Positions 441-40,496 of a DNA stretch of 40,626 nt are shown here, piece by piece (positions within the stretch are counted from its first letter, which is position 1; each line of letters begins with the position of its first letter). Origin of the DNA: a virus; IMG/VR virus record IMGVR_UViG_2885676553_000001, positions 1 through 40,626 of that record; one strand, 5' to 3'. Both the position numbers and the translations under genes were made by a program. A model generated the notes under the pieces. The model was not told the DNA's origin. It did not search any database and saw only the letters and a list, made by a program, of their open reading frames with translations.

Positions 441-1409
441 CTACAAACATTCCTTCAATTTTTTGATTTTGTTAAACACGCTAGTGGACAAAACTAAATC
501 GAAGATGTCCTGTGAACCCACCGACTTCTGAAACTCAGTTACTGCTTCGGCATATTCCTTAATGAACCTAGAAATTTCCCGTTTAGGCATTCTGAGAGCT
601 CTTAAATAATAAACAAGGAGGGCTACATAGTCTGTTAGGGTTTCGAAAGTTATTTGACTGACACCCAGCTCGGATTCCAACTGGTGGGTAACTGTGTCTC
701 GGACCTTGTCCTTCTTGAACCGGCAATCAAATACAATATTATTATGCGCAATGGCATTCCTAAGGTCTTTCAGAAGAAAAACATGCCGCACAATAAAAGT
801 AGCATCCGTATCAATTGAGCCATCATAAACGCCAACGTTCTGGGACAGCTCAATACGTTTATTACCATTCATTACGTCCAAAAATGAGCCGAATTCCGCC
901 ATGCTGAAAAGCTCAAATATGGCCCAAATAGGAACACCTTCACCCTTATGCATGTAATGCTGAATCATCACTGAACTCCCATAGCGCTGAGCAATTAATT
1001 CATCAATTGTATTCTTAAGCCTGAGTCGATCGGTTATGCGCTCCTTATACTTCTTCTTGCTGGTCTCTTCCTTATACCGGTTAAGGCTGGTTTGGAAAAC
1101 CGCATCAATTGAAGGATCAATTCCATTGGACACAATAGCAATAGTACGGTTTTTGAGGGCGGTTTCTACCCGCATCATTCGAGGATAGAGAAGAGACTTA
1201 ACCGAGCTATCAAACTCATAGATTGCCTGGACTTGTCTAAACTCCGACAACTCCATCTTCTGGTTGTTGGAAGTCAATCGATAAGCTTTATATCCATGAT
1301 AATAGCCCATATCTAATAAGGCCCTCTTATCAGAGCTTCCGCCAACGTCTATGCTATGCTTATCGCGAATGTGGCGCATCAGAGCGTCAGTCGATTTTCC
1401 CTTTTTCAT
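441..1409 (-). CDS. Abi_2 family (AbiD/AbiF-like) HEPN abortive-infection protein
   Basis: 322-aa ORF with SD GGAGA before the ATG. The N-terminus (KSTDALMRHIRDKHSI...GYYHGYKAY) and the R-x4-H motif (LRNAIAHNN) match my memory of Pfam Abi_2. It has its own terminators on both sides. Confidence 0.75.
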   Translation of the reverse strand: MKKGKSTDALMRHIRDKHSIDVGGSSDKRALLDMGYYHGYKAYRLTSNNQKMELSEFRQVQAIYEFDSSVKSLLYPRMMRVETALKNRTIAIVSNGIDPSIDAVFQTSLNRYKEETSKKKYKERITDRLRLKNTIDELIAQRYGSSVMIQHYMHKGEGVPIWAIFELFSMAEFGSFLDVMNGNKRIELSQNVGVYDGSIDTDATFIVRHVFLLKDLRNAIAHNNIVFDCRFKKDKVRDTVTHQLESELGVSQITFETLTDYVALLVYYLRALRMPKREISRFIKEYAEAVTEFQKSVGSQDIFDLVLSTSVFNKIKKLKECL

Positions 1410-17888: not shown

Positions 17889-19777
17889 TATTTACCACCT
17901 CCAAACATTGCCTTGAAGAAGTCACGTTTTCCTTGTGTGTCTAGGTCATTCAGCGGGTTATATCCCTCATCATGATAGTTTTCGAAATAGAATTTTGCCT
18001 GCGCATGAGCATTAATAAGCGCATCAGTCGTATCAATATGATCACTCGTGCGATTTTGACGATCAATCTTGACCGAACCGCCGCGATCTTCTACCAATAC
18101 AGCATTGTTTAGCCCATCGATCAGCAGCGGATCATTTAGCATCGAAATGTTGCCATTAATAAACAGATTCTGAAAGTCCTTAGTAGGCTCATTCAGCTTG
18201 AACGAGGTAGGAGGCAAAGGAAACCATTGCCACTGTGGTTGATAATTCTCCAGTTTCTTTTCAAGCCATTCACCATGGTTTGGATCAGCAATGATGAATT
18301 TGACCTTGAGCCGATGTTGATTAACATAATCAACCAACCACTGGTAAACCTGATCGGTGTTGATTACGCCTGATGCAAGATTGGTGATGTCAACGAATCC
18401 TTCATCTTGCAATTTAAGGTAATCTAATCCGTCCTGTTTCGACTTGGCTTCAATCGTTTTTGCCTGTGCGAAGGGAATAAAGCTGTGCTGCTGAACATGA
18501 AACATGTGTTTGTCATGATCAGTGTACGGATAAATGAAGCCAAAAGACGTATTATCATTTGTCTGTGACCCGTCAAACCCGATAAACACATCACGCCCGT
18601 TCACATCGAAGTGGTCAATAATACTGCGTTGAATGTTGTCTAGGGACAAATAGCTGTTCTGGAATCTCCGGCTCCACAGATTTAGTGACTTATTTACGAA
18701 GGTTTCAAGTGTTCCCTCACGTTCATTATCGTTGCGATCCTGATTAAGAGCATTTTGAAGGTTGTCCCGTTTACTCTTTTGCAGCTCAAGCAGATTAGGA
18801 TTAGATTTTGCCCATGTTTCGGGTTCAAATACCTCATCCTCTGAGTCCTGAGCATAAATTACTTGGAATACGTTGTCAGCGTCTCGAACGGCGTCATGCT
18901 CAATGGCAGCCCTAGTTACGTCTTCATCATTCTTAAACTTAACCTTGATATCAGGGTAAGCTGTTGAAATCTTGACAAACATTCGGTTCTTAATGCCATT
19001 TTGTCCGGATGTAATCTGTTTTAAGGTCTCATTCAGTGCTGGCCTCAAGTTACCAATTTCATCATAAACAGCGATTGCATTGTGGAAACTATCAAAGCCA
19101 CCACCTTGTGATGTGCCTTTTCGGATCGTATTCTTAGTGTTTTTTGCAATAACTTGCGTGGTATGAGCTTCCACGCCTCGCTCTCTAGCATCATCTGCAA
19201 AGTCCGGCAGAGACAAAATCGTCTTTGCCTGCAAAGACACGTCATTGAACAGCTTGGTTGCATGTTCACTATCGTAACTAGCCACTAGCAAATCCTGTGA
19301 TGTCGCATTCCAGCAGACTACAAAGTAATAAAAGTTGATTAGAATTGATGCTAGCCAAGTTTTGCCTTGCTGCCGAGCAATAGAAATATTAGAGGTCGTG
19401 AATCGAGTGCCGTTGTCAACGGTTCGCCATCCAATCAAGCTATCAAGAATGAACGATTGCCATTTGAATGGTTGAATTGTTTTCGACGTATCGTCTGGAT
19501 TAGGCAGCAGTCGTGAAAAGTATTCAATTGCGTTGACCATGTCTGAGTTGTATTGGTAGGGAAAATCATCATTGCCAATCCGCAATAAATCATTCAAGTG
19601 TCTAATACATGCCAGCTGAACATCTCTACCAGTCATGTATTTATTGCTGAACATAACGTCATAAGCGTATCTTGTTCCTGGATCGTGGTACTTATCAAAC
19701 AGTTCTTGGTAATCTGATTGGTACGGCTTTACGTATCCACGAATATCAGTTACACCGGTAAAATCAAACGTCTGCAC
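17888..19777 (-). CDS. terL: Terminase large subunit
   Basis: About 629 aa. Probable GTG start at 19777, 9 nt after GAAGGAGG. Position and size match the TerL slot downstream of TerS. Confidence 0.9.
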   Translation of the reverse strand: MQTFDFTGVTDIRGYVKPYQSDYQELFDKYHDPGTRYAYDVMFSNKYMTGRDVQLACIRHLNDLLRIGNDDFPYQYNSDMVNAIEYFSRLLPNPDDTSKTIQPFKWQSFILDSLIGWRTVDNGTRFTTSNISIARQQGKTWLASILINFYYFVVCWNATSQDLLVASYDSEHATKLFNDVSLQAKTILSLPDFADDARERGVEAHTTQVIAKNTKNTIRKGTSQGGGFDSFHNAIAVYDEIGNLRPALNETLKQITSGQNGIKNRMFVKISTAYPDIKVKFKNDEDVTRAAIEHDAVRDADNVFQVIYAQDSEDEVFEPETWAKSNPNLLELQKSKRDNLQNALNQDRNDNEREGTLETFVNKSLNLWSRRFQNSYLSLDNIQRSIIDHFDVNGRDVFIGFDGSQTNDNTSFGFIYPYTDHDKHMFHVQQHSFIPFAQAKTIEAKSKQDGLDYLKLQDEGFVDITNLASGVINTDQVYQWLVDYVNQHRLKVKFIIADPNHGEWLEKKLENYQPQWQWFPLPPTSFKLNEPTKDFQNLFINGNISMLNDPLLIDGLNNAVLVEDRGGSVKIDRQNRTSDHIDTTDALINAHAQAKFYFENYHDEGYNPLNDLDTQGKRDFFKAMFGGGK

Positions 19778-20231
19778 CGAACCCAACCTCCTTCAATGGA
19801 CTGTTTTTCTTAGGCTTTTCCGGTTCTTCGACAGTTATCTGGCGTAATCCAGAGTCAAATGTAAGTCCTAAATCATGTCCTAACGACTTCATATTCTTCA
19901 CACAAGAGTCCATTTGAACAGCTCCAGGAGAACGCTTCACCGCAACGTTATCGTTGTCATAAATCCACAGTCCCTGTTGTTCAATCAACTGCTCAGACTT
20001 AATGTAAAGTGAGTAATAACGGCAATACAGTTCAAGGCTTGGCTGGTCAATCTTTTTCAGGTAACCAAGTTTCTTGACTTCTGGAATAAGTGACTTCCAC
20101 AATCGGCTTGCTTCGTCGTCAAGGTGAACAGGAGGCGTGTTCTGAATGTCCTTCATATCGTCGTTGCAATCAGAGCAACTTTTATCAGAATTTGCGGGTA
20201 AAATTGTCAATTTTGGGTGATTTTCGGGCAC
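19764..20231 (-). CDS. terS: Terminase small subunit (P27 family-like)
   Basis: 155 aa with a GTG start after AAAGGAGG. The LELYCRYYSLYIKSEQ...LGLTFDSGLR pattern fits the P27 family. Confidence 0.75.
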   Translation of the reverse strand: MPENHPKLTILPANSDKSCSDCNDDMKDIQNTPPVHLDDEASRLWKSLIPEVKKLGYLKKIDQPSLELYCRYYSLYIKSEQLIEQQGLWIYDNDNVAVKRSPGAVQMDSCVKNMKSLGHDLGLTFDSGLRQITVEEPEKPKKNSPLKEVGFGADV

Positions 20232-20349: not shown

Positions 20350-20865
20350 TTAAACAACATAGGCCCCCCCTAATTTTTTGTGAGCGAGTACCCATTCGGA
20401 GATTTTGCTTTGCGTCCACTTAGTCGCGGTGTCAATATTTTCAATTCTGGACTGTGACGTGTATATCTTTTCCTCAAGCTGTGTCTTCCAATAGTGGCAT
20501 CCCTTACAGAGCACCCATAGATTTTGAGGGTCTAGGCATCTCCGCCTATCAATTTTCAGTGGGACAATGTGATCAGTGACCAAATAGCCTGGTTTGTCAT
20601 ACGTTCTGCCACAGATTGCACATGTAAAAAATGATTTGGCCTTTACGGTACGTGCCGTGTGTTCCCATATCTTAGACTTATAGAATGCAGCAGACTCTTT
20701 GTCGCGCTTGTACTTGTCGTAATATGATGTGTCACGTTTAACATGCTTTGCAGTATCAGCGTAGCTAGGTTTATACAATCCTGTATGTTCAGAACAATAT
20801 GGGTTTGCTTGAGCATAAGGGATTACATTATTGCATCCAGGCTTGCGGCATACCTTCACGCGCAT
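20350..20865 (-). CDS. HNH endonuclease (packaging-associated)
   Basis: 171 aa with multiple Cys pairs and an HNH core (DHIVPLK...NLWVLCKGCHYWKT). Lies directly upstream of terS. Confidence 0.85.
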   Translation of the reverse strand: MRVKVCRKPGCNNVIPYAQANPYCSEHTGLYKPSYADTAKHVKRDTSYYDKYKRDKESAAFYKSKIWEHTARTVKAKSFFTCAICGRTYDKPGYLVTDHIVPLKIDRRRCLDPQNLWVLCKGCHYWKTQLEEKIYTSQSRIENIDTATKWTQSKISEWVLAHKKLGGAYVV

Positions 20866-21247: not shown

Positions 21248-21271
21248 GCCAAGTAAATGGAGGTAATATCT

Positions 21272-21481
21272 ATGAGCTTAGATGGTAAAATTGATAGCAC
21301 TAAGGACAAGATCTCCGGTAAAGCAAAAGAAGTTGAAGGTAAAGTTACTGGTGATAAGGCCCGCGAAGCACAAGGCAAGGCTGAAGGCGTACTTGGCAAA
21401 GTAAAAGAAAAGTTAGACGATGCCAAAGATGCCGTTAAAGATACTGTTGATGATGTAAAAGAAAAACTTGATAAAGATTAG
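21272..21481 (+). CDS. csbD: CsbD-family small stress-response protein
   Basis: 69 aa starting MSLDGKIDSTKDKISGKAKEVEGKVTGDKAREAQGKAEG..., a typical CsbD-like Lys/Gly-rich repeat. SD GGAGGT. Followed by a terminator. Confidence 0.8.
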   Translation: MSLDGKIDSTKDKISGKAKEVEGKVTGDKAREAQGKAEGVLGKVKEKLDDAKDAVKDTVDDVKEKLDKD

Positions 21482-21488
21482 TCTTACG

Positions 21489-21514
21489 GCCGGCATTTGC
21501 CGGCTATTTGTTTG
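21489..21514 (+). terminator. Intrinsic terminator of the csbD-like gene
   Basis: GCCGGC-ATTT-GCCGGC followed by TATTTGTTTG. Confidence 0.7.
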
Positions 21515-21515
21515 T

Positions 21516-21549
21516 ATAAAAATAGCACCTCACCGTTTGGCGGAGTGCT
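21516..21549 (-). terminator. Intrinsic terminator of the 333-aa accessory gene
   Basis: Minus-strand 11-position stem AGCACUCCGCC/GGUGAGGUGCU (one mismatch, two G-U pairs) followed by AUUUUUAU. Confidence 0.6.
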
Positions 21550-21572: not shown

Positions 21573-22574
21573 CTATGCACGGATTTCCAGCAGTGCTCTC
21601 ACTTTACTAGAAACCCTATTTGCGAGTTCGCTGTTTCCTTGATACCCATTATCATAAAACTCGGTATACTCAGACGAAATGTCCGCCGGAAGATGTTCAC
21701 CATAATCTTCTTTAAAGCTTTCTCTGCTGCAAATTGTAATAACTTTTTTGCCAATTGTGTGACAAATACCGAGCTCATAAAACACATTTGGATTTTTATA
21801 GCTCAAATCAGCTATAGCAAAAGCCGATGTGCAAATATCTTGCCAAATATTTTCTACAATATCATTTCCTCTATTAGGATCGAACATATCCTCCGATTTT
21901 ATGATACTGACGTCGTCTCCTACTTTATCAACAATCGCTGTCATTGCATTAAGTGGTTCTTCTTTAAAAGGCAATATATAAAAAATCTTATTCTTATTGA
22001 CAACCATATTACGTGCCTTAAATTTCGGATCAATAATCATCATGTTGTTTTTCCTTTCGAAATACTTGATTATATTGGTAGAATTATATTCTAGGTTGGC
22101 TTTTAAATCTTTTGCATCATTTACTAGTTCTTTGAATTTTGCAAGCTTTGATTCGGTCGGTGTTACAGTAATGCTTGTCAATTGCTTAGAATATTTAGAT
22201 ATGAGGTTTACTGGTATTTGAACAAAGAATTGAGGACTGTACCCTCGGCATAGGCCCATATGAATACCTAATAATTCGTGTGCTTGAGATATGCTTTGTG
22301 CTTGCATATTCAAAAACGATATTTCTTCAAACCCATGTATGGCTTTTTGACTGGTTAATCCTAAAACCACCTGATTTGTCGCTAATAGCCCCCAAACATT
22401 ATATGGTTGAACAAGCGATACTCTAGTAAGTCCCACTTGCATCAATGACGGGTCATTTTGAGCATAGTCAAGCAGACAGTCTAAATACGTGATTAAATTT
22501 TTAGCATCCAATCCATATATAAAATCATTTATTGTCGACACGTCTTTAATCCCGGATAAATTTGTTTTCATCAT
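21573..22574 (-). CDS. AT-rich accessory protein: unknown N-terminal domain plus C-terminal NDT/TIR-like Rossmannoid-looking domain (candidate defence effector)
   Basis: 333 aa from ATGATG at 22574, with SD GAGGTGA 5 nt upstream. Visibly AT-rich compared with its neighbours. C-terminal block: IFYILPF...AFAIADLSYKNPNVFYELGICHTIGKKVITI. The GTG-extended 374-aa track ORF runs through the leader hairpin and has no SD. Confidence 0.6.
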   Translation of the reverse strand: MMKTNLSGIKDVSTINDFIYGLDAKNLITYLDCLLDYAQNDPSLMQVGLTRVSLVQPYNVWGLLATNQVVLGLTSQKAIHGFEEISFLNMQAQSISQAHELLGIHMGLCRGYSPQFFVQIPVNLISKYSKQLTSITVTPTESKLAKFKELVNDAKDLKANLEYNSTNIIKYFERKNNMMIIDPKFKARNMVVNKNKIFYILPFKEEPLNAMTAIVDKVGDDVSIIKSEDMFDPNRGNDIVENIWQDICTSAFAIADLSYKNPNVFYELGICHTIGKKVITICSRESFKEDYGEHLPADISSEYTEFYDNGYQGNSELANRVSSKVRALLEIRA

Positions 22575-22578
22575 TTCT

Positions 22579-22633
22579 ATCACCTCAAAAAAATAGTACC
22601 CCAGCACGAACTGGAATACTACATTGAGGTGAT
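22579..22633 (-). promoter_or_regulatory. SD-sequestering hairpin / terminator-like element immediately 5' of the 333-aa gene
   Basis: Perfect 10-nt inverted repeat: atcacctcaa (22579-22588) and ttgaggtgat (22624-22633). The inner stem GUAGUA..CCAG-UUCGUG-CUGG..UACUAU is followed by U7. The 3' arm contains the SD GAGGUGA. Confidence 0.6.
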
Positions 22634-22811
22634 GTCTGTGCTTCATATCTAATGGTCTTGGAGTGACAGACTCCAAAGCGAGCGGGCGGAGTTGCACCTC
22701 CCTGTTTCAACATTGAGTAACCGGTATCAATGCCTTCCCTCATCTGTTGCTCGCATAATACGGTATTGGGTAATGTCAACCGCTTTGCCCTCTAGAAAGG
22801 CTCTAACCTAA

Positions 22812-22865
22812 TGCAATCGCCGGGAATCGGACCCGGCACCATGAGGTGATCCATTTCGGTTGCAC
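22812..22865 (-). ncRNA. Anticodon-arm-less tRNA-like minihelix
   Basis: Minus RNA: GUGCAACC-GAAAUGGAUCACCUCAUGGUG-CCGGG-UCCGAUU-CCCGG-CGAUUGCA. It has a T-arm-like hairpin and the same 3' acceptor strand as the tRNA-like gene at 23061-23135. Confidence 0.35.
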
Positions 22866-23060
22866 TGACACACTCCCGGATACCGCGCCGGGCCGCTAAC
22901 GGTGGTACCACCATCCAGTGTGAGTGTGTCCGCCCACACTGGCCATTGTTGTGTTGATGGGCGAGATCTATACCAGTCCCATCATGGCCGCGTCCGGCAC
23001 TTTCCAATCAGTCAATCGACATCATGGCTGCGGAGGTTAAAACTCCTAGCATCAAACATA
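22866..23060 (-). ncRNA. GC-rich structured RNA candidate (strand inferred from the flanking tRNA-like elements)
   Basis: No credible ORF. Crossing helices gacacactc(22867-75)/gagtgtgtc(22922-30) and ccagtgtg(22915-22)/cacactgg(22935-42). Hairpins cccgg/ccggg (22875-92), ggtggtaccacc (22901-12) and gatggg/cccatc (22956-83). Direct repeat catcatggc at 22980 and 23020. Confidence 0.4.
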
Positions 23061-23135
23061 TGCAATCGGCAGGCATCGAACCTGCATCGTGTTCACATCG
23101 CGCTAACGTGCCGCTTTACTTTAAGCTACGATTGC
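23061..23135 (-). tRNA. tRNA-like gene with a canonical acceptor and T arm but an aberrant D loop and anticodon region
   Basis: Minus RNA: GCAAUCG UA GCUU AAAGUA AAGC GG CACGU UAGCGCG AUGUG AACACGAU GCAGG UUCGAUG CCUGC CGAUUGC A. Anomalies: no GG in the D loop, A at position 33, 8-nt variable region, no encoded CCA. Confidence 0.45.
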
Positions 23136-23218
23136 ACTCGGATTATCGCTACCCGAATCATTCAACACTATCAGAATAACAGTGAATTTTGTTCAAGTGG
23201 TTACTACTTAGTTGCAAT

Positions 23219-23677
23219 TTAGTCACTTAGAAGTTGCTTGCTCGTCTCATTTCTTAACACGATCAGCTCATGATTTGGGTAAGATTCGGCAAACTCGAAC
23301 AATGCGGCTGTCTTTTGGCGTTTAGCAGTGCCAACACTTCCAAACCCCATACGTTCTGCGACTTGCCACATTTCTAGCTCCTCTGGCGTGCAGTAGCAAA
23401 AGTACAATAACCATTTGCTTTGAAACTTGCACAGCGCTAACGCGTTATCAATCACTCCGATATGTGCCTCAGCATCCAGCACCTTATCCAGCCTAGCAAC
23501 AAGGGCGGCTTCAGTACCGTTTTGAAATGATTGAGCTTTCGGCATCCCGTCCATAGATGGTGACTTGAGATCAGTCAACGGGCGACCTGCCAAGCGCGCA
23601 TAGTGTCGATATTCTTTTAGCTTCTGGCGAGCCTTATCACAACTAGCCTTTTCATCAATTTCTGGAAACAATGCCAT
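23219..23677 (-). CDS. arpU: ArpU-family late transcription regulator
   Basis: 152 aa with SD GGGGTGG. It is the last gene of the early operon before the packaging module, and the sequence style fits the ArpU/sigma-like family. Confidence 0.7.
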   Translation of the reverse strand: MALFPEIDEKASCDKARQKLKEYRHYARLAGRPLTDLKSPSMDGMPKAQSFQNGTEAALVARLDKVLDAEAHIGVIDNALALCKFQSKWLLYFCYCTPEELEMWQVAERMGFGSVGTAKRQKTAALFEFAESYPNHELIVLRNETSKQLLSD

Positions 23678-36794: not shown

Positions 36795-37943
36795 GTGAAT
36801 ACAAATAAACAAATGGTACCGGAGCTTCGCTTCAAGGGGTTCACTGACGCTTGGGAAGAGCGTAAGTTAAAAGAACTTGGTGATATACAGACAGGTAATA
36901 CACCTCCAACAAGTAATTTGGATAATTATTCTACTGACGGCGTACTATGGGTTACTCCAACAGATATCAAAACGCTTGTTATATCTGATACTGCTAAAAA
37001 ACTATCTGAAGTAGGTGTGACAAAAGCAAGGATTGCTAAAGCAGGATCGATACTAGTTACTAGTATTGCAAGTATTGGGAAAAACACCTTAGTAACAATG
37101 GATGCTGGTTTTAATCAACAAATAAATTCACTCACTCCAACGCCTAAAAATGACTCCTATTTTCTGTTGACTCAATCAGAAAAGTGGTCTGAAAAGATGA
37201 AGAAAACTGCAGCATCAGCAACCATGCAGATAGTTAACAAAACAGATTTTTCAAATATCTCCACCTTTGTTCCTGTACACAAAGAGGAGCAACAAAAAAT
37301 CGGCTCATTTTTCAGGCAACTAGATGAAACTATCGCTCTTCATCAACGTAAGTTATATCTACTCAAGGAACAGAAAAAAGGCTACTTGCAGAAGTTGTTC
37401 CCCAAAAATGGAAGCAAGTTCCCGCAATTAAGATTTGCTGGATTTACTGACGCTTGGGAAAAGCGTCCTATCAAGAAAATCGCTAGCGTGAACGGTGGCA
37501 AGGACTACAAGCACCTTAACAAGGGTGACATTCCAGTCTATGGAACTGGCGGATACATGCTAAGTGTCGACCAGGCTTTATCTCAGGAAGACGGCATTGG
37601 CATTGGGCGAAAAGGTACAATTAACTCCCCCTACATTCTAAGAGCTCCATACTGGACCGTAGATACGTTGTTCTATGTGATACCTAAGGGGACACAAGAT
37701 ATAAATTTTCTGTATGCAATTTTTCAACGAGTTAACTGGAAGAAATACGACGAGTCTACCGGTGTACCATCATTGTCGAAACAAACAATCAATGCCGTGG
37801 AAGTTACAACTCCTACTCAAGCTGAACAAGAATTGATTGGAACGATGTTTAAGCAACTTGATAATCTCATCGCAGTCAACCAGCGTAAGGTTGAACTGTT
37901 AAAAAAATTGAAGCAAGCCTATCTCCAGAAAATGTTCGTGTAG
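36795..37943 (+). CDS. hsdS: Type I restriction-modification specificity subunit (orphan HsdS)
   Basis: 382 aa with two TRD halves, each opened by (E/Q)LRF(K/A)GFTDAWE(E/K)R. Two conserved helices are present (IGSFFRQLDETIALHQRKL..., IGTMFKQLDNLIAVNQRKV...). GTG start after GAGGTGA. Confidence 0.9.
   Translation: MNTNKQMVPELRFKGFTDAWEERKLKELGDIQTGNTPPTSNLDNYSTDGVLWVTPTDIKTLVISDTAKKLSEVGVTKARIAKAGSILVTSIASIGKNTLVTMDAGFNQQINSLTPTPKNDSYFLLTQSEKWSEKMKKTAASATMQIVNKTDFSNISTFVPVHKEEQQKIGSFFRQLDETIALHQRKLYLLKEQKKGYLQKLFPKNGSKFPQLRFAGFTDAWEKRPIKKIASVNGGKDYKHLNKGDIPVYGTGGYMLSVDQALSQEDGIGIGRKGTINSPYILRAPYWTVDTLFYVIPKGTQDINFLYAIFQRVNWKKYDESTGVPSLSKQTINAVEVTTPTQAEQELIGTMFKQLDNLIAVNQRKVELLKKLKQAYLQKMFV
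36839..36863 (+). repeat. hsdS intragenic direct repeat, copy 1
   Basis: Sequence gttcactgacgcttgggaagagcgt. The 15-nt core actgacgcttgggaa is identical to that at 37446-37460. Confidence 0.7.
37442..37466 (+). repeat. hsdS intragenic direct repeat, copy 2
   Basis: Sequence atttactgacgcttgggaaaagcgt, at the start of the second TRD half. Confidence 0.7.
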
Positions 37944-39245: not shown

Positions 39246-39359
39246 CGAAAAAGCGCCTGTCCCCATACCTTGACCGGTCAGGACAGACGCTAGGCAAGAA
39301 CTCGCTCGATGAGTGCGCTCTTTGTGTACTCTATTTTAACCTAAATGGAGGAAATTATC

Positions 39360-40496
39360 ATGGCATCTTACGAAAAACGTGGGACCGGTTGGCAGTTTCG
39401 TATCTCATGGCAGGACGAACAGGGCAAACGACATACCAAATCCAATGGTGGTTTCCGCACTAAGAAACTCGCCGAAAATGCTGCACACGATCTAGAGGTA
39501 AAACTCGCACACGGCTCGCATATTGACCGTGCGGATCTACCCCTAGTTGATTACTGGCATCAATGGTGCACCACTTATAAAATCGGTAAACGCGCTGTCG
39601 CCACAGAATACTTTTATCCAATCATTGAAACGACACTCAAAGATTACTTTGGTGATACGCCACTCGGCAAGATCACGCCCTTAAAATGGCAAGCCTTTCT
39701 AAACGACTATGGCGACACTCATGCGCGATCAACTAGCTCAAAGGTCAATGGATATATTCGTGCCATGGTACGCACCGCTATCAACGAACAAACTTTACAC
39801 ACCGACTTCACCTTTGATGCTGAAATTTCCGGTGAGCGTGGTGTTGATGAAGCCGACAAGTACCTTCAGCTTGATCAGTTTGCCGAGCTAGTTAACTTAG
39901 CACATGAAACGGCGGACTTTAATCACCTTGCAACTGTCGCCGTTTATGTCGGCGCAGAATCAGGAATGCGAGTGGCCGAAGTGCTTGGTCTTACGTGGGA
40001 TTGTGTGGATTTTGAAGCCAATACACTCACCATTAATAAATCATGGGACTATATTCATCATACGGGTTTCAAGCCAACGAAAAACGAATCCAGTAATCGA
40101 ACCGTCGAAGTTCTACCCGCAGTCACTGATTTACTCCGCCAAGTCAAAGTCCAACAAGCGGCTTGGATGCTGAAAACGGGCCAGCGTGACAAGCACAACT
40201 GCGTTTTTTATTCTAAGTATTCTCAGGTCCTTACTGGTGCGGCGTGTAATAAGGCACTTAAAAATATGGAGACCAAAATCGGCATCCCCAATGACGATCA
40301 AATCACCTTCCACGGCTTGCGTCATACCCATGTCTCTTATCTCCTATCCGAGGGTATCGATATTTACTATATCTCAAAGCGACTTGGCCACGCCGGCATC
40401 CAGATCACGATGAGCACTTACAGCCACTTATTGGACGCACAGAAATCTAAACAGGCATCAAAAGCAATGGTGGCGCTGGATAAGCTTGCCCGATAA
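39360..40496 (+). CDS. int: Tyrosine integrase
   Basis: 378 aa from MASYEKRGTGWQFRISW with SD GGAGGA. Catalytic signature present: MRVAEVLGL (R), HGLRHTH (HxxR), LGHAGIQITMSTYSH (H...Y). Confidence 0.9.
   Translation: MASYEKRGTGWQFRISWQDEQGKRHTKSNGGFRTKKLAENAAHDLEVKLAHGSHIDRADLPLVDYWHQWCTTYKIGKRAVATEYFYPIIETTLKDYFGDTPLGKITPLKWQAFLNDYGDTHARSTSSKVNGYIRAMVRTAINEQTLHTDFTFDAEISGERGVDEADKYLQLDQFAELVNLAHETADFNHLATVAVYVGAESGMRVAEVLGLTWDCVDFEANTLTINKSWDYIHHTGFKPTKNESSNRTVEVLPAVTDLLRQVKVQQAAWMLKTGQRDKHNCVFYSKYSQVLTGAACNKALKNMETKIGIPNDDQITFHGLRHTHVSYLLSEGIDIYYISKRLGHAGIQITMSTYSHLLDAQKSKQASKAMVALDKLAR

Follow-up and report, generated by a model that had tools for sequence, protein, structure and literature searches.

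A candidate abortive-infection effector with an NDT/TIR-clade domain in a cargo slot between arpU and the packaging genes of a Lacticaseibacillus prophage

Why should a temperate phage carry, between the end of its early operon and its packaging module, an AT-rich gene which looks like neither a replication nor a structural gene? This question is raised by a 333-aa open reading frame (ORF) of the viral record IMGVR_UViG_2885676553_000001 (IMG/VR), whose positions 1 to 40,626, a stretch of 40,626 nt, are called here the window. An earlier note, written by a model from the letters alone, had interpreted the gene as a single-protein abortive-infection or nucleotide-depletion effector carried by the prophage. 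That interpretation was supported by our analysis, and those parts of it that could be checked computationally all came out as proposed. Our reading, to which we give a probability of about 0.6, is that the gene encodes a prophage-borne, single-polypeptide anti-phage effector of the abortive-infection (Abi) type and that it was acquired as a cassette, the interval from arpU to the packaging genes being a hot spot for defence genes. The gene and the parts of its product are the following:

22574 to 21573, minus strand: candidate coding sequence, 333 aa, with the stop codon at 21573-21575.
22167 to 22574, minus strand: N-terminal alpha/beta domain (residues ~1-136), the proposed sensor, family-specific and hypervariable.
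22047 to 22157, minus strand: helical hairpin or stalk joining the two domains (residues ~140-176; DSSP helices 140-153 and 155-176/177).
21576 to 22019, minus strand: Rossmannoid domain of the nucleoside 2-deoxyribosyltransferase (NDT, DrHyd)/TIR clade (residues ~186-333), the proposed N-glycosidase effector.
21747 to 21809, minus strand: signature D256-L-S-x-x-N-P-N-V-F-Y-E267-L-G-I-C-H-T-I-G-K276, the E267 codon being GAG at 21774-21776.

The C-terminal sequence which the earlier note had quoted is found verbatim in the ORF, and its assignment to an NDT/TIR-like block was borne out by profile and fold searches. Against PDB sequences the profile of the C-terminal domain (C-domain) matched DNPH1/Rcl (E 1.7e-4) and the nucleoside 2-deoxyribosyltransferase 2a0k (E 0.025), whereas the full-length profile gave no matches. 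In the alignment of '...IADxTgrNPNVFYELGIAHTLGK...' with '...VAEVTQPSLGVGYELGRAVALGK...' of Rcl, E267 falls on the Glu of the GYELG motif, the catalytic nucleophile, and by the same alignment N261 would stand where Rcl has its phosphate-binding Ser87. When the modelled domain was compared with PDB structures by Foldseek, the matches included DNPH1 (E 1.8e-4, TM 0.6-0.7 on target), the TIR-STING structure 7un8 (SfSTING TIR, E 3.6e-4) and the NDT 8pqt (E 1.4e-3); among viral models (BFVD) they included a 'CMP/hmCMP hydrolase' (E 8e-7), Pycsar/CAP12 TIR and NDTs. The predicted three-layer Rossmannoid fold is superposable on NDT/DNPH1. In addition, 32 of 38 C-domain relatives matched PF05014 (best E 5e-7), while CAP12-PCTIR_TIR, the CAP12/Pycsar TIR model, was matched by six of them and TIR_2 by three. 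The C-domain of the query itself reached 12.6 bits against PF05014, under the gathering threshold of 28.8, whereas several distant relatives exceeded that score (30.7-35.6 bits), so that its link with NDT is transitive and holds at superfamily level.

The family shows no variation at D256, S258, N261, N263, V264, Y266, E267, L268, G269, G275, K276, P296, D298 and Y307. Among unbiased homologues, collected with a search free of word indexing, the Asp was kept in 93% of the sequences, N/P/N in 87-92%, Val in 98%, Tyr in 95%, Glu in 92%, Gly in 97% and Lys in 93%, with the P..D pair and the later Tyr among the positions conserved at 87-98%. The profile, fold and signature evidence thus places the C-domain on a divergent branch of its own within the NDT (DrHyd) superfamily, which belongs to the TIR-DrHyd-SLOG clade of Burroughs, Aravind and colleagues (PMC9503650). 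It has the fold class of that superfamily and keeps its catalytic signature. NDT/DrHyd and TIR-like domains are computationally established as immune effectors (PMC7159879, PMC9503650).

With the NDT superfamily (PF05014, clan Nribosyltransf, including DNPH1/Rcl and the MilB-type (hm)CMP hydrolases) the C-domain shares the Rossmannoid fold, its best profile and fold matches and the core strand-Asp ... [FY]-E-L-G ... G-K-hydrophobic-strand. It differs from it in having its own signature, D-x-[ST]-x-x-N-P-N-V-F-Y-E-L-G-I-[AC]-H plus P-F-D ... Y, in being joined to a novel N-terminal domain (N-domain), in sitting in a prophage defence slot and in falling below the Pfam threshold. This likeness is also the starting point of another explanation, in which the protein is a lytic-cycle counter-defence or nucleotide-metabolism enzyme whose N-domain gives substrate or partner specificity, acting either on a host immune signal (ADPR-derived or cyclic nucleotides) or on dNMP or CMP/hmCMP as in MilB/DNPH1. 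We regard it as unlikely. The best structural and viral matches (DNPH1, NDT, 'CMP/hydroxymethyl CMP hydrolase') fit it, and one source label in the cluster of the candidate protein agrees with them. However, the metabolic enzymes are only remotely similar (11-18% identity, E about 1e-4), the PF05014 score stays below its threshold, and these matches do not put the protein in a housekeeping family. An unrelated fold or a known housekeeping family was the outcome that the earlier note had set against its own proposal; the Foldseek and profile searches returned DNPH1/NDT matches that are remote only and give no family placement.

The domain family to which the C-domain belongs is very large. A profile run against 1.84 billion cluster representatives gave 20,531 matches at E<=1e-3 and 6,988 at E<=1e-10, and about 44 full-length proteins of the candidate type were found among the 50%-identity cluster representatives matched. 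At least 555 species-representative genome loci carry the domain, in many phyla and including Asgard archaea. It occurs fused to SLATT effector domains with two transmembrane segments, to STAND NTPases (nSTAND1, NPHP3_N, AAA_22) and to REC with EAD1/7/8, as well as to PP2C, three GAF domains, TPR/HEAT repeats, a sigma54-type AAA+ domain, an Hsp70 substrate-binding domain and DUF4062. Such partners are typical of conflict systems and, to judge from them, the domain appears to behave as a conflict-system module; fusions to STAND, EAD and SLATT, typical of cellular immune effectors, speak against the counter-defence or metabolic explanation.

Two groups of relatives deserve separate description. 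Proteins P0060, P0061, P0063, P0068 and P0084 consist of an N-terminal DUF4062, a coiled coil and an NDT-like domain with NPNVFYELG, and thus hold two domains of the TIR/DrHyd clade in one polypeptide, DUF4062 being a TIR-like NADase according to 2026 preprints (bioRxiv 10.64898/2026.05.01.722283). Membership of the C-domain itself in DUF4062 was considered and rejected (hhalign probability 1.6%, no PF13271 match). In Staphylococcus aureus phage P630 (L046, 3357-4007), gp47, of 216 aa, has a related C-domain (36% identity over residues 237-311); its gene lies antisense inside the replication module, an arrangement found in many temperate phages of S. aureus, and it is possibly what PMC9503650 noted as the 'distinct TIR version of small Firmicutes phages'.

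The remainder of the protein behaves differently. As the earlier note had said, its N-terminal part has no recognisable match: about 190 aa remained unmatched in Pfam, NCBIfam and PDB sequence and fold searches. The protein consists of the N-domain, the stalk and the C-domain; an AlphaFold2 model of the full protein, built on the family alignment, has a pLDDT of 84.8 and predicts an alpha/beta N-domain (about residues 20-136), a helical hairpin (140-176) and the Rossmannoid C-domain (193-328), and the N-domain modelled alone reaches a pLDDT of 83 and a pTM of 0.80. Foldseek found no fold neighbour of the N-domain in the PDB (best E 0.3, TM below 0.2) and its profile matched no PDB sequence, which suggests a novel or unrecognised fold. 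Among 5.8 billion proteins the same profile recovered members of the same family only, with no other effector fused to the N-domain. Compared with the query, other members of the family show 13-19% identity in the N-domain and 40-62% in the C-domain, and the ratio of non-synonymous to synonymous substitution rates (dN/dS) relative to the orthologue of phage BH1 is 0.27 for the former and 0.11 for the latter. A sensor-effector immune protein would be expected to look like this, with a conserved enzyme tethered to a domain that diverges fast and is confined to the family. In a small-molecule enzyme a hypervariable N-domain is unexpected.

The position of the gene provides evidence that is independent of its sequence. 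Its slot, which the earlier note had placed between ArpU and the packaging module, is indeed bounded as follows and holds a self-contained accessory cassette:

23219 to 23677: ArpU-family late regulator (TIGR01637, 66 bits), upstream of the candidate gene.
23060 to 23136, minus strand: tRNA-Arg-like gene (ARAGORN and Rfam), upstream of the candidate gene.
22678 to 22760, minus strand: 'element A', a conserved block of ~80 nt, GCGAGC...GGTGCAACTCCGCCCGCTCGC, the upstream edge of the slot in Lacticaseibacillus phages.
22579 to 22633, minus strand: conserved leader hairpin with the anti-Shine-Dalgarno sequence AUCACCUC, a 13-bp terminator-like stem, U7 and the Shine-Dalgarno (SD) sequence GAGGUGAU (22579-22586).
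21516 to 21549, minus strand: intrinsic terminator of the candidate gene, hairpin AGCACUCCGCC-AAAC-GGUGAGGUGCU followed by AUUUUUAU.
21488 to 21505, plus strand: terminator of the CsbD gene, abutting that of the candidate gene.
21257 to 21481, plus strand: CsbD-family stress-protein gene (PF05532), convergent with the candidate gene.
20350 to 20865: HNH gene, downstream of the candidate gene.
19764 to 20231: TerS (Terminase_4), downstream of the candidate gene, as are a small membrane protein and TerL.

Directly before the start, a block of ~180 nt (22579-22760) recurs with 85% identity in phages A2, R9.1, C3.1, C4.1, R3.1 and R29.1 and with 70% identity in iLp84 and PLE3, all of which have a different gene after it. 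The terminator sequence of the candidate gene also closes the slot in related phages, empty slots included. When viral contigs were searched for a 21-nt motif of the upstream block, 29 related loci were obtained, in six of which the slot is empty and the block leads straight into that terminator; the GC-rich viral loci L010 and L040 also contain the motif, yet they appear unrelated and were set aside. The cargo found elsewhere comprises AbiN (E 9e-45), KwaB of Kiwa (1e-36), a type IIG restriction-modification enzyme, the PADLOC candidates PDC-M67A and PDC-M11A, several unknown genes and tRNAs. In addition, homologues of the candidate gene lie just upstream of terS in prophages of L. fermentum, L. 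oris and Lactobacillus sp. ESL0731, whose replication and packaging modules are unrelated. The L. fermentum homologue has a PD-T7-4-like neighbour, and in Latilactobacillus sakei (L005, 5915-9421) the homologue belongs to an island of the chromosome, where it immediately follows AbiLi (1e-43) and the AbiLii-like partner of the latter. Location next to known defence genes, or interchangeability with them, is the type of evidence normally used to nominate defence systems, and the AbiN, KwaB, type IIG and PADLOC-candidate cargo together with the AbiLi and PD-T7-4-like neighbours give the defence inference independent support. The interval between arpU and the packaging genes is a defence hot spot. 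Its alternative cargo consists of defence genes rather than anti-defence genes, a further point against a counter-defence enzyme. As a side observation, the L. fermentum homologues are likewise trailed by a small convergent gene, which resembles the CsbD arrangement.

The composition of the gene stands out as well. The AT-richness that had caught the attention of the earlier note is real: the ORF has a G+C content of 0.350 (0.312 at third codon positions) against a window mean of 0.455 (standard deviation 0.033, 1002-nt windows), only 0.3% of the 1002-nt windows are as low, and the minimum of the whole window falls inside the ORF. This foreign composition was counted in favour of the defence reading.

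Hot spots of the P2/P4 type and the AbiN of lactococcal prophages offer a parallel, in that the slot described here likewise has conserved flanks, swapped cargo (here AbiN, KwaB and a restriction-modification enzyme, among others) and an empty allele; the arpU-terS site of Lactobacillaceae siphophages with its SD-sequestering leader appears undescribed in searchable papers. No description of the candidate family or of this hot spot was found in the searchable literature. What is new here is a superfamily branch without Pfam, NCBIfam or PADLOC annotation, its pairing with an N-domain of unrecognised fold, and a hot spot with a shared SD-sequestering leader.

The signals around the gene were then considered. 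That it has a terminator of its own, as had been noted before, was confirmed: the hairpin followed by a U run at 21516-21549 has a predicted energy of -14.9 kcal/mol (z -2.2; 6 of 200 shuffled sequences did equally well) and is conserved in related phages, and its absence from the list of a consensus scanner is due to one mismatch. The leader hairpin is two-tiered (-30.7 kcal/mol, z -6.9), and its inner 13-bp stem with U7 was also listed by the terminator scan. Ten distinct versions of it precede different cargo genes, AbiN among them, and all have the same fold; the restriction-modification enzyme, KwaB and PDC-M67A instead bring a canonical TTGACT-17-TATAAT promoter.

Element A was examined as an RNA. 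It gave no Rfam match even at E<=10 and no ARAGORN call, and RNAalifold detected essentially no covariation among its copies. On these grounds it was rejected as a riboswitch (a cobalamin-like GGGAA...GGUGCAACUCC had been considered) and as a T-box, tRNA-like gene or type III antitoxin RNA; a hammerhead (CAGAUGAG...CUGAAAC) was discarded as well, since the putative core differs among copies. The conserved block may serve as a promoter or regulator site, as some other RNA or as an anchor for recombination.

Several observations weigh against a defence function. The first ones concern expression. The SD is strong (GAGGTG), as the earlier note had stated, but the note overlooked that it pairs within the terminator-like leader and that an evident sigma-70 promoter is lacking: the outer stem joins AUCACCUC with GAGGUGAU and is predicted to sequester the SD, and on the minus strand between arpU and the candidate gene the scanner found no sigma-70-type promoter. 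A TTGACA at 22774-22779 was rejected as a promoter element because only 13 nt separate it from TATTAT. With the SD behind a terminator-like hairpin, expression may be confined to the lytic cycle; the timing of expression, in lysogeny or late in the lytic cycle, is the main weakness of the defence reading. Further points come from the protein and its neighbours. Searched as a whole against Pfam (TIR included) and NCBIfam, the protein gave no match over threshold, and PADLOC-DB v2.0.0, the check that the earlier note had suggested, returned a TIR-effector domain (PDLC00733, residues 216-301) that matched weakly (E 4.8e-4) and no significant system-level match. The nearest solved structures, DNPH1 and NDT, are housekeeping nucleotide hydrolases or transferases, and the query has Ala where the P-F-D motif has a nearly invariant Phe. 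Finally, a Tad2-like gene (PF11195), of a known anti-defence sponge family, lies immediately 3' of the L. sakei homologue; an anti-defence sponge family beside defence genes makes that island an odd mixture.

Some of these points favour the counter-defence or metabolic enzyme in particular: the gene is co-oriented with the lytic genes just after ArpU and has no evident promoter of its own, and the Tad2-like gene would be a fitting companion. Against this stands, besides the cargo and the fusions, that among 50,697 deposited phage genomes no virulent phage has a full-length homologue, the only full-length copy being that of the temperate phage BH1. The same leader suggests an alternative that we consider quite improbable, less so only than decay of the gene, namely an addiction or competition module, in which a latent toxin restrained by the leader would stabilise the prophage or kill upon its loss or upon interference by a rival, or else a non-catalytic nucleotide-binding regulator. 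A terminator directly before the SD does resemble the read-through-limited expression of toxins, a HicA/HicB-like pair adjoins the L. oris homologue, and the TIR/DrHyd/SLOG clade includes non-catalytic sensors (PMC9503650). However, there is no cognate antitoxin gene or cargo-specific RNA, the leader is common to unrelated cargo, and the conserved catalytic Glu with its signature argues for an enzyme. For the effector reading, the leader may mean that the protein is made only through limited read-through or a regulated opening, which would suit a toxic effector.

Among 5.8 billion proteins searched, about 58 from Lactobacillaceae, of 320-370 aa, had the same architecture, while more distant relatives had only the C-terminal ~148 aa in common. 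In PHROGs the full-length protein belongs to phrog_26406, a family of unknown function (E 1.5e-193). The largest possible ORF at the locus runs from 22697 to 21573 (374 aa, GTG start); the 333-aa version starts at the ATGATG at 22574, preceded by GAGGTG-ATAGAA-ATG, and NCBI WP_225419495.1, a hypothetical protein of Lacticaseibacillus baoqingensis, is identical and likewise of 333 aa. The BH1 orthologue (94% DNA identity) is annotated as a hypothetical protein of 357 aa (L001, 4050-5123), whose coding sequence begins 24 codons upstream of the SD-preceded ATG and crosses the conserved leader hairpin; its start was probably mis-called, being over-extended into the leader. The cluster at 90% identity has 75 members, unnamed save two source labels among those read: 'CMP/hydroxymethyl CMP hydrolase' in a viral metagenome-assembled genome record and 'tRNA-dihydrouridine synthase' for a 123-aa fragment from the Joint Genome Institute. 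Relative to BH1 the dN/dS of the whole gene is 0.17, which indicates purifying selection. That the gene is a decaying or non-functional remnant is essentially excluded: it is true that it is annotated everywhere as a hypothetical protein, but this selection, the size of the 90%-identity cluster, the ~44 full-length representatives at 50% identity, the confident structure prediction and the invariant catalytic motif all speak against it.

The candidate protein was next compared with known immune systems. Retron NDT effectors and DUF4062 are experimental precedents among its relatives, and prophage-borne Abi genes are commonplace. In type II retrons (e.g. Retron-Eco1/Ec86) an NDT-like N-glycosidase is the abortive-infection toxin. 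By analogy, the candidate could be likened to these toxins, as the earlier note had proposed. The NDT-like effector domain of that comparison held; membership in a retron did not and was rejected. No reverse-transcriptase domain was found in the Pfam-scanned large ORFs of the window (ORFs of the structural region, TerL and a 309-aa early ORF being unscanned or matchless) and no msr/msd: Rfam detected no retron RNA, and within 2.5 kb of the gene there is no other ORF of more than 175 aa. Moreover, no retron effector appeared among the PDB sequence matches of the C-domain or its top 50 Foldseek matches.

TIR NADase effectors (TIR-STING, CAP12/Pycsar TIR, ThsB, PDLC00733) belong to the same structural clade and give weak direct matches, although NDT models fit the C-domain better than TIR models. 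No partner of Thoeris, CBASS or Pycsar (cyclase, ThsA, STING, SAVED) is adjacent, the neighbours being the tRNA, CsbD, a small transmembrane protein and HNH, and the gene is bounded by its own leader and terminator.

The closest working precedent is Swarozyc, a single protein in which a TIR-like DUF4062/'NIR' NADase is followed by a stalk and a sensor and is activated by the phage portal; its auxiliary domain binds the portal, its catalytic Glu is essential and it is found in defence islands (bioRxiv 10.64898/2026.05.01.722283). The candidate protein would follow the same proposed logic, its N-glycosidase being of the TIR/NDT clade and linked by a helical stalk to the putative sensor. The order is reversed, however, with the sensor N-terminal and the enzyme C-terminal; the sensor is unrelated or unmatched, and family-level homology between the domains is lacking, even if some distant relatives carry both DUF4062 and the C-domain.

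On this basis we infer a trigger and a defence phenotype as follows. The N-domain would recognise a component of an infecting phage, and the helical hairpin would transmit the signal or oligomerise, coupling sensing to release of the C-domain. Freed from autoinhibition, the C-domain would cleave the N-glycosidic bond of an essential nucleotide through E267, a catalytic activity proposed from its sequence; NAD+ is the leading candidate as substrate, and a (d)NMP or (d)NTP is possible. Depletion of the nucleotide would abort the infection. The terminator-like, SD-sequestering leader hairpin probably holds basal expression at a very low level. A bolder version, which we put forward only tentatively and as improbable, would make of these proteins an unrecognised single-gene Abi family of Lactobacillaceae prophages, with a new-fold sensor, an NDT-clade N-glycosidase whose substrate is a (deoxy)nucleotide other than NAD+ (dNMP, dNTP or ATP being depleted by base excision) and a terminator/anti-SD leader common to all arpU-terS cargo, opened only on infection or induction.

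If the effector reading is confirmed, it would add a new sensor-effector pairing to the NAD- or nucleotide-depleting immune repertoire and would give a function to a very large NDT branch that lacks annotation, counts over 20,000 cluster representatives and is repeatedly found with STAND, EAD and SLATT. It would also provide a recombination hot spot with a conserved leader and terminator that can be mined for further defence genes of lactic acid bacteria of industrial importance. Prophage-borne Abi genes bear directly on the phage robustness of Lacticaseibacillus starter and probiotic strains.

The window as a whole is a near-complete temperate siphophage or prophage of Lacticaseibacillus, of the BH1 / phiAT3 / Lc-Nu type. 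Its minus-strand genes run from 35.5 kb to 0.4 kb in the order from early functions to lysis, and at one end of it lies the integrase together with the S24 repressor and an HsdS gene:

39345 to 40496: integrase.
36795 to 37943, plus strand: HsdS, an orphan specificity subunit of type I restriction-modification, placed in the lysogeny module with the S24 repressor on one side and the integrase on the other.
441 to 1409, minus strand: Abi-like ORF of 322 aa, at the lysis-side end.

Some minor observations were made along the window. The tRNA-Arg(GCG) call at 23060-23136 (42.5 bits) has an abnormal anticodon arm, with a short stem and a loop apparently enlarged to 9-11 nt, and may be a non-canonical or decaying phage tRNA. 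Next to it, the minus-strand stretch 22790-23010 is GC-rich, and its end resembles the T-arm and the 3' half of the acceptor of a tRNA, GGTGCCGGGTCCGATTCCCGGCGATTGCA, although there is no 5' half; its acceptor strand is the same as that of the neighbouring tRNA, and for parts of it intergenic DNA with 75-96% identity exists in Lc-Nu, in Lrm1 and in two virulent myophages, Lb338-1 and Lbab1. This stretch is probably the remnant of a tRNA array. The entire 486 nt between 22575 and 23060 have a fold z of -4.65. The 322-aa ORF at the lysis-side end matches PF07751 (Abi_2, 99 bits) and is, on this match, a second candidate abortive-infection gene of the prophage or its flank. Finally, the orphan HsdS (PF01420; PADLOC Specificity_I, 2e-88) could retarget a type I system of the host.

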